In this document: piece by piece, positions 55,272 through 58,435 of the stretch
How the letters are laid out: the number at the start of each line of letters is the position of its first letter
Position numbering within the stretch: the first letter of the stretch is position 1
NCBI GenBank assembly: GCA_963706595.1
Contig: OY970166.1
Span: forward strand, 1,472,001 to 1,536,000
DNA length: 64,000 nucleotides
Direction of reading: 5' to 3'
Source: an uncultured cyanobacterium
GTDB lineage: Bacteria > Cyanobacteriota > Cyanobacteriia > Cyanobacteriales > Nostocaceae
The notes under the pieces: model-generated
What the model saw: only the letters and a program-made list of their open reading frames with translations
Databases searched by the model: none
What the model was told of the DNA's origin: nothing
Program-made: the position numbers and the translations under genes

Positions 55272-57698
55272 TTAATTACGAATTATTTTCTTAGCGAATT
55301 GCCAAAGTAAATAAAACGGTAAAGTTACAATACCCAGTAAAATTTGTAGAAACTGATTGAGCCGTCGTTTCCAAATAGCAATGGGAGTTAACTTTTTTCG
55401 CAGAATTGCCAAGTTTTCTCTAATTGTCGCTGTAGTGGGATGATTAACCCCTAATACCCGTTGACACATCTCCAAGGCTTGAATGTAGAGGGGTTCGGCA
55501 TCACTGTAGCGCCCTTGACTATAGTAGAGTAAGGCTAAATTGTTCAAGCTAGTAGCCAGATCAGGATGGTCGCCGACAAACAAGCGCTGTCTCATCTCCA
55601 AGGCTTGAATGAAACGGGGTTCGGCTTCACTGTACCGCCCTTGACTGTTGTAGAGAAGAGCTAAATTGTTCAAGCTAGTAGCCAGATCAGGATGGTCGTC
55701 GGCAAACAAGCGCTGTCTCATCTCCAAGGCTTGAATGAAACGGGGTTCGGCATCACTATACCGCCCTTGAATATCGTAGAGTGCAGCTAAATTGTTCAAG
55801 CTAGTAGCGACATCAGGATTGTCGCCGCCAAACAAACGCTGTCTCATCTCCAAGGCTTGAATGAAACAGGGTTCGGCATCACTGTACCGCCCTTGACTGT
55901 TGTAGAGTGCAGCTAAATTGTTCAAGCTATTAGCCAGATCAGGATGGTCGCCGACAAACAAGCGCTGTCTCATCTCCAAGGCTTGAATGAAACGGGGTTC
56001 GGCATCACTGTACCGCCCTTGATTGTTGTAGAGTGCAGCTAAATTGTTCAAGCTAGTAGCGACATCAGGATTGTCGCCGCCAAACAAGCGCTGTCTCATC
56101 TCCAAGGCTTGAATGAAGAGGGGTTCGGCTTCACTGTAACGCCCTTGATTGTTGTAGAGTGCAGCTAAATTGTTTAAGCTAGTAGCGACATTAGGATGGT
56201 CGCCGACAAATAAAGCTTGGCAAACATTGACACATTTCTCATACCAAGGTTCTGCTAATTGATATAGTCCTTGTCCTTTATAAAATCTTGTTACTCCTAC
56301 AAATATCCCAATTACTTGATTATTGGGAACTGATGCTGGGGAATTTATCTGTGTTTCACCTGCTTGCTTAATCTCAGCAATTATCCTATTTCCCAAGTCT
56401 TCAATATGGGGAACAACATCCTTGATGCGTTCGATATCCTCAGAAGTGGGTGATTGGGGAAGGCTTTGAGCTACCGTTATCATGGCAGAAGCAAAGGTTG
56501 TTTCTAAAACTGATTTTATTTCCCCAGAATTAGTTAACTGTTCTTGCAAGAACCATTGCACCAAAGCATGAATTTTATAATATTCTCCTTCTGTAGCTTC
56601 TACCAGTTGCAGCAAGTTACGTGCGTAAAGTTGCTTTTTGGCTGCGTTTATTTCCTCTTGTGACCAAGTTAGTTGTGTTGCTGCTGCATCTTCTGCTTTC
56701 CCGCCATCTGTCGCCACCCAATTCACCAAATCCCAAAGAATCTGTTGGGGAGCAAATAAACTCAAAAATTTTCCTAATTGTTGTGTGAGGGGGTCAAGTT
56801 TTTCCCAAGTTAAGGTAAACGCTGCTTTGACTCCCAGTTGCGCTTGACCAATGGTAGAATCTGGCTCTCTTTGTAAAGATATTTCAGCTAATTTTTGGGT
56901 TTTTAACCTCTCAAACATTGTATTCAGAGATAGTCCTGGGTCACGGACTAAATAACCTCCGACTAACTCTATCCCCAAAGGTAAATATTCCAGACATTTA
57001 CATATTGCAGTTGCAGCTTCTAATTGATTTTCAACTCGCTTGTCTTTGTTCCCTAACAATCGTTTTAACAGTTCTAATGCTTGTCCTGGTTCTTTTTCTG
57101 GAGAAAGAACATCTAAAGAAATCTCTTGAATAAAATTCGGGTCTAAATTTCGTTGTATGGTTGTCACCAAAACGCGAAAGCGTTGATCTTCGGGTAAGAC
57201 TTGGCGGAGGTTGGCTAAGTCTGTGACATCATCGAAGACTATTAATATAGGCAAGGTAGAGTCAGGATATCTAGACCAACACCAAGCAACTTGTTCTTTT
57301 AGGCTTAACAGTTTGCCCCCTAGTTCTTGGGGAATCTTGAAACCAAGATTGATAAAAAATTCCAAGATTTCAGCAGCAAGATTACTGTTGCGATCATTGA
57401 ACCAAGCAATACCGCCATAATTATCTTGATATCTTTTGGCGTATTGGGTAACTAATTCGGTTTTACCTACGCCTCCCATCCCTGAAATTGCCACATAATT
57501 TCCACGCTGCAAGTCTTCATGCACTCGTGTCAGTTCCTGTTCACGTCCGACGAAATGAACAGAACCACGATCAGGAATATATTTTGTGGGAGTTAACTGT
57601 TTCTGACCCTGAATAATTTGAGTATCAATGTTAACTTGACTACCAGGAGCAGCATAAGCACCAATTTTGTCCGCAAGCTTCCCAGAGTCGTTAAACAT
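55272..57698 (-). CDS. NB-ARC (STAND) NTPase with TPR repeats; NLR-like protein
   Basis: FVGRE.EL, GMGGVGKT, LIVFDDV, VLVTT, YLPLGIEL, IHALVQ, six near-identical 42-aa TPRs; only ~45 aa precede the NTPase domain. Confidence 0.93.
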   Translation of the reverse strand: MFNDSGKLADKIGAYAAPGSQVNIDTQIIQGQKQLTPTKYIPDRGSVHFVGREQELTRVHEDLQRGNYVAISGMGGVGKTELVTQYAKRYQDNYGGIAWFNDRNSNLAAEILEFFINLGFKIPQELGGKLLSLKEQVAWCWSRYPDSTLPILIVFDDVTDLANLRQVLPEDQRFRVLVTTIQRNLDPNFIQEISLDVLSPEKEPGQALELLKRLLGNKDKRVENQLEAATAICKCLEYLPLGIELVGGYLVRDPGLSLNTMFERLKTQKLAEISLQREPDSTIGQAQLGVKAAFTLTWEKLDPLTQQLGKFLSLFAPQQILWDLVNWVATDGGKAEDAAATQLTWSQEEINAAKKQLYARNLLQLVEATEGEYYKIHALVQWFLQEQLTNSGEIKSVLETTFASAMITVAQSLPQSPTSEDIERIKDVVPHIEDLGNRIIAEIKQAGETQINSPASVPNNQVIGIFVGVTRFYKGQGLYQLAEPWYEKCVNVCQALFVGDHPNVATSLNNLAALYNNQGRYSEAEPLFIQALEMRQRLFGGDNPDVATSLNNLAALYNNQGRYSDAEPRFIQALEMRQRLFVGDHPDLANSLNNLAALYNSQGRYSDAEPCFIQALEMRQRLFGGDNPDVATSLNNLAALYDIQGRYSDAEPRFIQALEMRQRLFADDHPDLATSLNNLALLYNSQGRYSEAEPRFIQALEMRQRLFVGDHPDLATSLNNLALLYYSQGRYSDAEPLYIQALEMCQRVLGVNHPTTATIRENLAILRKKLTPIAIWKRRLNQFLQILLGIVTLPFYLLWQFAKKIIRN
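55443..56198 (-). repeat. Six tandem 126-bp TPR-coding repeats with high nucleotide identity
   Basis: (H/N)P(D/N)xAxSLNNLAxLYxxQGRYSxAEPxxIQALEM repeated six times. Confidence 0.95.
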
Positions 57699-57723
57699 AA
57701 ATATTTCAGATAAAAATAATCAT

Positions 57724-58011
57724 TGTGGGGTGGGTGTCCTCACCTCACTTTTCACATCATCTGGAAAAACCAAAGCGAAACCTAACCCCCTAGCCCCCTT
57801 CCCTACCAGGGAAGGGGGAAAATTCAAAGCCTCTCCAATATCAAAGTTTTTCCTTTTCCCTCTCCTCGTAGGAGAGGGCTAGGGAGAGGTAGGGGAGCGG
57901 TTTGGAGAGAGGTTTTCCAAATCCTGTCCTCACCCGCCCAAAACAGGCAAGACTTGTACTGAGCTTGTCGTTCGCGTAGCGTGGCGTTAGCCATAGTATG
58001 CCTGTTCCACA
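57724..58011. repeat. Cluster of nested small dispersed repeats between the effector and NLR genes
   Basis: Two CCCC/GGGG hairpins, TGTGGGGTGGG..GTCCTCACC (related copy at 37267), and a 24-nt unit at 57971-57994 related to 6153-6178. Confidence 0.65.
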
Positions 58012-58036
58012 AGAAAATTGAAGACAATACTTCAGC

Positions 58037-58435
58037 TTAAAAAGACTGATTTTGAATATTTCCTGTCCCTCCAGGCATGACTACCTGACCAATTTTGTCA
58101 GCCAACTTTTGCAGATTAGGCATAGCCAGAATTTCTGCAAACTTGGGATTGGGTTCTGCTTTTGCGGCTGCTGCCAATTCCTGTGCAGCTTGTGCCACTT
58201 CCGGATCAGCCTGCGCCGCAGATTCCACCTCAATAACAGCTTTGCCATAATCTAGGGGTTGTTCTGGTGCTTTCTCAATTGCAACGACAGTTTGAGGAGA
58301 GTGTTTTCTCAGCTTGACAAGAAATTGACCAGTTTTATCCCATAAAACATCGCATACCTTTTCGCCCGTTTTTTCTAAGGCTTTGGTGGCGACTACAGAC
58401 CCAATGGCGATCGCAGCAGTAGTTAAAGGTTCCAT
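58037..58435 (-). CDS. Small helical protein, putative Bell/HeLo-like effector, with a C-terminal motif shared with the adjacent NLR
   Basis: Hydrophobic N-terminal helix MEPLTTAAIAIGSVVA, LW, ADPE.A..; C-terminus KLADKIGQVVMPGGTGNIQNQSF. Confidence 0.7.
   Translation of the reverse strand: MEPLTTAAIAIGSVVATKALEKTGEKVCDVLWDKTGQFLVKLRKHSPQTVVAIEKAPEQPLDYGKAVIEVESAAQADPEVAQAAQELAAAAKAEPNPKFAEILAMPNLQKLADKIGQVVMPGGTGNIQNQSF

Follow-up and report, generated by a model that had tools for sequence, protein, structure and literature searches.

A stretch of 64,000 nucleotides from an uncultured cyanobacterium of the Nostocaceae (NCBI GenBank assembly GCA_963706595.1, contig OY970166.1, positions 1,472,001 to 1,536,000 of the forward strand; this whole stretch is called the window below) encodes a small helical protein next to an NLR-type receptor. 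The C-terminus of the former and the N-terminus of the latter carry the same BASS5 motif, and both copies are conserved across genera. We conclude with a probability of about 75% that the two genes form an amyloid-signalling module of the BASS5 class, composed of a Bell-like effector and an NB-ARC/TPR NLR. In relatives of the window, effector and receptor also occur in a single reading frame that is interrupted by an invariant TGA followed by a conserved RNA hairpin. Programmed UGA readthrough is the explanation we lean towards for this second layout.

An effector-receptor pair with a shared terminal motif

The pair consists of the following parts, all on the minus strand (window coordinates):

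58037-58435, minus strand: small effector gene, 132 amino acids, ATG at 58435, stop TAA at 58037-58039 (open reading frame (ORF) list)
58124-58435, minus strand: predicted helical domain of the effector, residues 1-104, with the hydrophobic N-terminal helix MEPLTTAAIAIGSVVATKALEK and Glu at position 2 (AlphaFold2)
58040-58108, minus strand: effector-side BASS5 motif KLADKIGQVVMPGGTGNIQNQSF, 21-residue core at 58046-58108 (translation, alignment)
57699-58036, minus strand: intergenic spacer, 338 bp (blastn against the own genome)
55272-57698, minus strand: NLR-type receptor gene, 808 amino acids (ORF list, Pfam)
57618-57680, minus strand: NLR-side BASS5 motif KLADKIGAYAAPGSQVNIDTQ, residues 7-27 (translation, alignment)
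56856-57539, minus strand: NB-ARC NTPase, residues 54-281, with P-loop GMGGVGKT at residues 73-80 (Pfam PF00931, E 1.6e-12)
55413-56384, minus strand: TPR sensor region, about residues 439-762, seven TPR_12 stretches (Pfam TPR_12, E 1.6e-120; TPR_10; TPR_NPHP3)
55275-55391, minus strand: hydrophobic C-terminal tail of the NLR, ...AIWKRRLNQFLQILLGIVTLPFYLLWQFAKKIIRN (translation)

The 132-amino-acid protein ends in ...NLQKLADKIGQVVMPGGTGNIQNQSF, directly followed by TAA, and the 808-amino-acid NLR begins with MFNDSGKLADKIGAYAAPGSQVNIDTQIIQGQKQ (also given as MFNDSGKLADKIGAYAAPGSQVNIDTQ). The two 21-residue blocks align without gaps and share 12 identities. The best ungapped BLOSUM62 segment between the last 45 residues of the effector and the first 45 residues of the NLR scored 55, a value that none of 2,000 shuffles of the NLR N-terminus reached (mean 19.9, standard deviation 4.05, maximum 45). 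In the six-frame translation of the 5.57-Mb genome, the string KLADKIG was found at exactly two sites, namely the two motif copies. Both genes are co-oriented and 338 bp apart, which places the NLR well within 5 kb of its partner. An earlier note, written from the DNA letters only, had given these motif positions, the gap-free match of 12 in 21 residues and the co-orientation, and all of them proved exact when compared with the ORFs, the alignment and the shuffles. It had further seen no other similarity between the two proteins; in agreement, a tblastn search of the small protein against its own genome revealed none beyond the motif stretch (the second match spans residues 95-130, E 0.19). 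Both the small gene and the NLR gene are single-copy according to tblastn, with one other weak NB-ARC-like match to the NLR in the whole genome.

The receptor combines an NB-ARC NTPase with TPR repeats, as expected for an NLR. Pfam places the start of NB-ARC at residue 54, leaving about 50 residues in front of the NTPase, which bears out the claim of the earlier note that there is no room for an N-terminal effector domain. HET-s, RHIM, Ses_B/PP and NACHT_sigma were absent among the 25 listed of the 36 Pfam families matched by the NLR, and their models did not match the small protein at E<=1 either; such short-motif models are insensitive. Behind the TPR region the NLR ends in a hydrophobic, conserved tail (...LQILLGIVTLPFYLLWQFAKKIIRN) that is similar in relatives. 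Judged by its sequence, this tail might anchor the protein in a membrane, an unusual feature in an NLR.

By sequence comparison the motif is a member of the already published BASS5 family and not a new one, because the C07 set in the archive of PMC8086366 lists both an NLR N-terminus, MFNDSGKLADKIGAFAAPGSQVNIDTQIIQG, that differs from the window NLR in one of its 31 residues and an orthologous effector C-terminus (C07_s037). The C07 entry PNPKLAEILAMPNLEKLADKIGQVVMPGGTGNIENMSF is identical to the small-protein C-terminus at locus L013 and other loci. The README of the same archive equates C07 with BASS5, and BASS5 is reported by Dyrka et al. to be present in Actinobacteria and Cyanobacteria. 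Our assignment was made through the listing of near-identical or orthologous termini in the archive. The pair itself is one more member of a published class, and the interpretation that the earlier note had given of it is supported.

Both motif copies are conserved across Nostocales

We sorted 81 loci, 80 from species genomes and the window. At 47 of these, a small gene is followed by a collinear NLR and the motif is present on both proteins (including L001, where the NLR copy reads KRADKIG). The records concerned are named Nostoc, Nodularia, Anabaena, Tolypothrix, Calothrix, Westiellopsis, Komarekiella and others. Co-conservation of the motif in orthologous gene pairs, which the earlier note had named as a check on its proposal, was thus found in many genera of the Nostocales. 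Another 23 loci have the one-frame TGA layout with a single copy of the motif, and 11 lie at contig ends or are truncated or rearranged (L005, L022, L029, L031, L032, L042, L043, L049, L053, L062 and L065). Since effector, motif and NLR share a frame at the 23 one-frame loci, this layout provides an independent tie between the two proteins.

At two loci from Nostoc metagenome bins (L042:4953-8162 and L049:5001-6662), the small ORF runs directly into the NLR from about residue 269 of the latter, so that the two motifs are missing, as is the P-loop half of NB-ARC. From their sequences, these loci look like deletion derivatives.

The small protein resembles Bell-domain effectors

AlphaFold2, provided with an alignment of 106 sequences, modelled the small protein as helical over residues 3-118 (mean predicted local distance difference test score (pLDDT) 80.1, predicted template modelling score 0.71). 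The modelled helices span residues 3-23, 29-45, 47-54, 63-76, 78-92, 97-103 and 106-118, their number varying with how kinks are counted. Confidence was high in ten-residue blocks covering residues 1-100 (pLDDT 81-93), while the motif tail is of low confidence from about residue 118 (pLDDT below 50 at residues 118-120 and 122-132). The first helix, MEPLTTAAIAIGSVVATKALEK, is hydrophobic and carries Glu at position 2, and the consensus N-terminus of the family reads MEPxTxxAxAIAT. A hydrophobic first helix with an acidic residue at position 2 or 3 is described as the N-terminal signature of Bell, HeLo, MLKL and RPW8 domains in the preprint of Dyrka et al. (bioRxiv 10.1101/2020.01.06.895854), where the Bell profile was seeded on ONI86675.1. 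With 132 amino acids and helices over residues 3-118, the protein also has the size and the helix content of a Bell protein. We consider it Bell-like because of these sequence features and because the authors placed orthologous tails in their Bell-side set.

Database searches yielded 732 homologues of the small protein at E<=1e-3, which form 250 representative clusters at 50% identity. The best 120 of the 732 are 76-100% identical, measure 131-132 amino acids and are annotated as hypothetical protein only; they stem from Nostoc, Tolypothrix, Fischerella, Calothrix and similar genera. Two candidate annotations were discarded. The matches of the small protein in a sequence-profile search of the PDB are Ala/Glu-rich designed or repeat helices and were judged spurious. 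The HetE-N family (PF20701), assigned to 20% of the members of one Atlas cluster, was not confirmed by Pfam on the 106 relatives, and the other Atlas clusters are unnamed cyanobacterial ones.

Among the longer relatives, the Bell-like N-terminal domain was found fused, without the motif, to large proteins (P0176, P0224 and P0238 with 823-901 amino acids, P0151 with 700 amino acids). Read by eye, the partner sequences contain a ...GxxGAGKST P-loop or HEAT-like repeats.

A conserved TGA element lies between effector and receptor in relatives

The small ORFs of the 23 one-frame loci have BASS5-type tails of another kind, such as ...NVFQGNTFNAPVTFN, ...IVNFAQRDINVETQNINI or ...AQNQTIDQRGSTFNI, and stop at TGA; the NLR frame resumes directly, in frame 0 and without a second motif. 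The consensus from the stop onwards is TGA CTR NAG TCG YCC GAA CGG GAA CGG RCA AAG TTA. We built a covariance model of this element from 22 sequences, and a 5-bp hairpin begins exactly 8 nt after the TGA in every model hit. The element lies outside the window:

L066:5430-5479, L071:5430-5479, L059:5394-5443 and 49 further hits (L056-L110): TGA element (covariance model)

Of 151 genomes sampled from the window's family, 68 matched the model, with up to five copies each. In a phylum-wide sample, 10 of 151 genomes matched (7/17 within the family, 3/133 outside). Neither the model nor sequence searches detected a copy in the window's own genome. At all 30 loci retrieved in the family search, the TGA sits in frame, with an ORF ahead of it and an open frame behind it; the phylum-wide search added 11 loci, eight of them with an in-frame TGA, and the pattern did not locate it in the remaining three.

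Element statistics were calculated over 52 model hits on the loci, comprising 46 distinct sequences. TGA was present in 52 of 52 hits. Among the distinct sequences, the +4 base was C in 42, and the triplet after the stop was CTA in 25 and CTG in 12. The hairpin was paired in 99.1% of cells. One pair covaries between U-A (26) and C-G (18), and two more pairs show rarer double changes. No shuffle matched the covariation score; the sequences are related, which tempers this statistic. In a MAFFT alignment made independently of the structure, the hairpin looked the same. The hairpin is well supported. In addition, a pseudoknot between the loop GGGGA and a downstream UCCCC (78% of cells paired) and a lower stem that includes the UGA (88% of cells paired) are possible, both without compensatory change. 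Rfam returned no family at the one locus scanned (L066:5300-5600).

The ORF upstream of the element is mostly Bell-like, with a CHAT protein in two cases, and the downstream frame encodes NB-ARC/TPR, NACHT/HEAT or protein kinase regions. In 45 of the 52 hits, this frame runs without a stop for 300 codons or more, or as far as the locus extends. At L078:1336-1411, an in-frame TGA separates a Bell-like ORF from a more distant NLR (36% identity); the 3' sequence is divergent there and the RNA model did not match.

Readthrough or an ordinary stop

The arrangement points, with modest confidence on our side, to programmed UGA readthrough, by which effector and effector-NLR would be made from one frame. 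The stop context is conserved and of the leaky type, an RNA structure follows about 8 nt on the 3' side, and both flanking frames are coding. From codon 15 to the P-loop, variation at codon positions 1/2/3 was 0.138/0.065/0.199 and 0.311/0.197/0.480 in the two length groups, that is, the coding pattern with position 3 above position 1 above position 2. No such pattern is seen in codons 1-14, where the RNA element is located.

We regard it as rather unlikely that the UGA is an ordinary stop, with the NLR made from an internal start or being a pseudogene and the hairpin serving as a signal for processing or stability of the transcript. Of the 42 hits in which a P-loop was found, 40 do offer an in-frame ATG, GTG or TTG ahead of it, mostly at codons 32-39 after the TGA. 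Single-sequence folding energies of five elements were no better than those of shuffles (z -1.19 to +0.72), and the downstream frame is short in 7 of the 52 hits. However, the invariance of the TGA in all 52 hits speaks against an ordinary stop, given that the small ORFs of the two-gene (KLADKIG) class stop at TAA in 49, TAG in 3 and TGA in 1 case. Likewise, the downstream frame follows the stop in frame 0 and without a gap in every case, and 49 of the 52 hits contain no ATG, GTG or TTG within the first 17 codons after the TGA. Moreover, the candidate starts sit behind a conserved ...IPYRGSxxFVGRExEL stretch. This region between the element and the candidate starts contains the conserved FVGR, varies in the manner of coding sequence and aligns with residues 40-57 of the window NLR, which are translated.

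Decoding of the TGA as selenocysteine was rejected as unlikely. Among five element-rich genomes, which carry 4-5 copies each, none contained SelA (SelB and SelD were not searched for) and none a tRNA-Sec above the Rfam cut-off; nine sub-threshold hits were examined and represent tRNA-Ser, tRNA-Tyr and tRNA-Gly. Natural fusions with a sense codon at the position of the UGA were not found in 21 candidates, the sole hit, P0271, being an NLR of the two-gene type. Database proteins spanning the UGA junction were not found, and the longer relatives of the small protein proved to be fusions of other kinds. The terms 'readthrough', 'read-through' and 'stop codon' do not occur in the preprint 10.1101/2020.01.06.895854, and a full-text literature search, whose coverage did not extend to the journal version of that preprint or to subscription papers, retrieved no description of the TGA element.

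Two layouts of one locus

Locus L071 of Nodularia chucula CCY0103 is collinear with the window, with 89-93% nucleotide identity on both sides. The sole difference extends from about codon 103 of the small gene to about codon 34 of the NLR gene. In L071 this segment measures 155 nt (L071:5309-5463) and contains one motif, the TGA and the element, whereas in the window it measures 529 nt (57599-58127) and contains a motif, TAA, the repeat-laden spacer, an ATG and a second motif. The 3' flank of the TGA element is retained in the window NLR (AGTTAACTCCCACAAAATATAT), and the motif copy of this NLR occupies the position of the pre-stop motif in L066 and L071. The two layouts are thus alternative forms of a single locus, and we argue on this ground that both do the same job.

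The spacer of the window is largely made up of dispersed short repeats, with 71 blastn matches in the own genome including itself. Two repeats stand out:

57743-57836: spacer repeat of about 94 bp, up to 41 overlapping genome matches including the spacer's own, up to 96% identity (blastn)
57943-58027: spacer repeat of about 85 bp, 7-14 copies (blastn)

In orthologous loci the intergenic gap ranges from 28 to 606 bp. Because the spacer is filled with repeats and the gap varies elsewhere, the wide spacing is best explained by secondary insertion into an otherwise tight pair. No terminator-like site was detected in the spacer on the minus (coding) strand. The repeats resemble miniature inverted-repeat transposable elements and contain inverted repeats.

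Proposed mechanism and its alternatives

By analogy with the family and with its counterparts in fungi and E. coli, the TPR region would sense a trigger, which might be a phage, another non-self cue or a stress cue. Oligomerisation through NB-ARC would then gather the N-terminal motifs, and these would fold into an amyloid seed that serves as a template for an identical fold in the effector tail. The helical domain thus freed, with its hydrophobic first helix, would attack the membrane and kill the cell. Amyloid formation by BASS5, pore formation, killing and phage defence are what we infer from these analogues.

Several results weigh against such a module. For the small protein, Pfam found zero families at E<=1 and no family in common among the 106 relatives. 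Its model had no match in the PDB at E<=1e-3 with Foldseek, and in a wide VIA-align comparison the best Z was 5.2, which is the noise level for helical bundles, among unrelated helical proteins. No structural likeness to HeLo, MLKL (4HB), Rx-CC or Bab stood out with either program. A helical domain with a hydrophobic first helix, in line with the HeLo/Bell-like pore former proposed in the earlier note, is present in the AlphaFold2 model. Further, the two-gene class displays no pair-specific covariation: motif identity within own pairs was 9.9/21 versus 9.8 in cross pairs. The near-constancy of the effector-side motif (17 distinct forms versus 34 on the NLR side) accounts for this. Assays of BASS1 and BASS3 are reported by Dyrka et al. 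in the preprint (bioRxiv 10.1101/2020.01.06.895854), and a test of a BASS5 peptide was not found there or in section 13 of PMC8086366. While 57% of published pairs are reported to be spaced by at most 10 bp, the window pair is separated by 338 bp of inserted repeats. Finally, the neighbouring genes encode homoserine dehydrogenase, CpcD-FNR, a CAAD protein, a pentapeptide-repeat protein and an alpha/beta hydrolase; these flanks are housekeeping, not a defence island, and give no contextual hint of defence. Complex prediction with two copies each of NLR residues 1-40 and small-protein residues 95-132 scored 0.01 and gave no answer.

Some of the same facts would suit a shared motif that is an ordinary docking peptide, acting by beta-strand addition or as inhibitor or adaptor, with no prion-like templating and a small protein that is no killer. 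Under such an explanation, the choice of assayed motifs, the missing fold match to a known pore-forming executioner and two copies that are just 12/21 identical and do not covary pair by pair would all be unsurprising. Yet the motif has the composition and the placement of the BASS classes, which are characterized by G, N, Q, V and I, a length of about 21-25 amino acids and a position at the extreme termini (bioRxiv 10.1101/2020.01.06.895854), and the authors' profiles classed it there. The sister classes BASS1 and BASS3 are reported in that preprint to act as prions and to form fibrils, with NLR-side motifs converting Bell-side motifs. In the one-frame relatives, one and the same motif copy would be borne by the NLR and by the free effector, an arrangement more in keeping with homotypic stacking than with a lock-and-key contact. 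We consider mere docking improbable.

That the similarity is a functionless relic of local duplication or gene fission is very hard to credit: the position of the NLR-side copy at the site of the single pre-stop motif of one-frame relatives, together with the retained 3' flank, suggests that the second copy probably arose by rearrangement of a one-frame locus, but both copies are kept in the 47 two-motif loci despite the variable spacer, NLR positions K7, K11 and G13 are invariant in an alignment of 36 sequences, and this conservation disfavours a relic.

Implications

The window pair adds one genome to a catalogued family and offers a clean, single-copy BASS5 module in which amyloid formation by BASS5 and the trigger of the NLR could be tested. 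The one-frame TGA element of the relatives could matter more than the pair in the window. If readthrough takes place, one mRNA would give rise to many free effector-BASS proteins and few effector-BASS-NLR proteins, in a ratio set by the efficiency of recoding, and free effector and effector-NLR would bear an identical amyloid motif. This would explain both the matching motif and the skewed stoichiometry of receptor and effector. It would also explain why annotated motif-bearing small proteins adjoin NLR genes that seemingly lack a motif as well as a proper start.

The element would then represent a structured, cis-acting and selenocysteine-independent bacterial signal for UGA readthrough that is used modularly, with Bell-like or CHAT effectors upstream and NB-ARC, NACHT or kinase receptors downstream, and the few recoding mechanisms listed for bacteria would be joined by a structured readthrough signal. 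Our data suggest that many cyanobacterial amyloid-signalling NLR modules are expressed via a conserved recoding element.

Comparison with known systems

In HET-S/NWD2 of Podospora anserina and other fungal NLR/HeLo pairs, an N-terminal motif of the NLR templates the matching C-terminal motif of a helical, membrane-targeting executioner from the neighbouring gene. The HET-S/NWD2 motif belongs to the HRAM family and is present as two pseudorepeats on the effector, which has a HeLo domain. In contrast, the window pair uses a different motif family, and its effector carries a single motif copy and a domain that is Bell-like, not HeLo.

The Bab/Agp system of E. coli, which mediates abortive infection through amyloids (Ibarlosa et al., bioRxiv 10.1101/2024.11.07.622273), resembles the window pair in that adjacent genes have a common amyloid motif. 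No other system of this kind is known to have a demonstrated role against phages. Bab/Agp differs in its motif, BASS11, and in its unicellular enterobacterial host, and PDB profile searches, Foldseek and VIA-align found no link in sequence or fold between the window protein and Bab/Agp. The closest counterparts are the published BASS5 Bell/NLR pairs. They share with the window pair the motif class, with near-identical sequences, and the layout, in which the motif is located at the C-terminus of a helical protein of about 130 amino acids and at the N-terminus of a collinear NB-ARC/TPR protein. They also come from the same type of organism, filamentous cyanobacteria.

For the TGA element, two kinds of recoding signal offer themselves for comparison. 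Bacterial selenocysteine insertion sequences are stem-loops immediately 3' of an in-frame UGA (PMC7026636). The element shares with them the in-frame UGA and a conserved hairpin just 3' of it, possibly with a lower stem that includes the UGA, but it occurs in genomes in which neither SelA nor tRNA-Sec was found (0/5 each). Type II readthrough signals of eukaryotic RNA viruses consist of UGA, then CGG or CUA, and a stem-loop about 8 nt on the 3' side (Firth and Brierley, PMC3542737). The element differs from these in residing on a bacterial chromosome instead of in a eukaryotic virus and in its short hairpin of 5 bp, which a lower stem or a pseudoknot may extend. It shares with them the UGA, a next triplet that is often CUA and a structure that begins 8 nt on, and as with the viral signals the outcome of the proposed readthrough would be a short, abundant product accompanied by a rare, C-terminally extended one.

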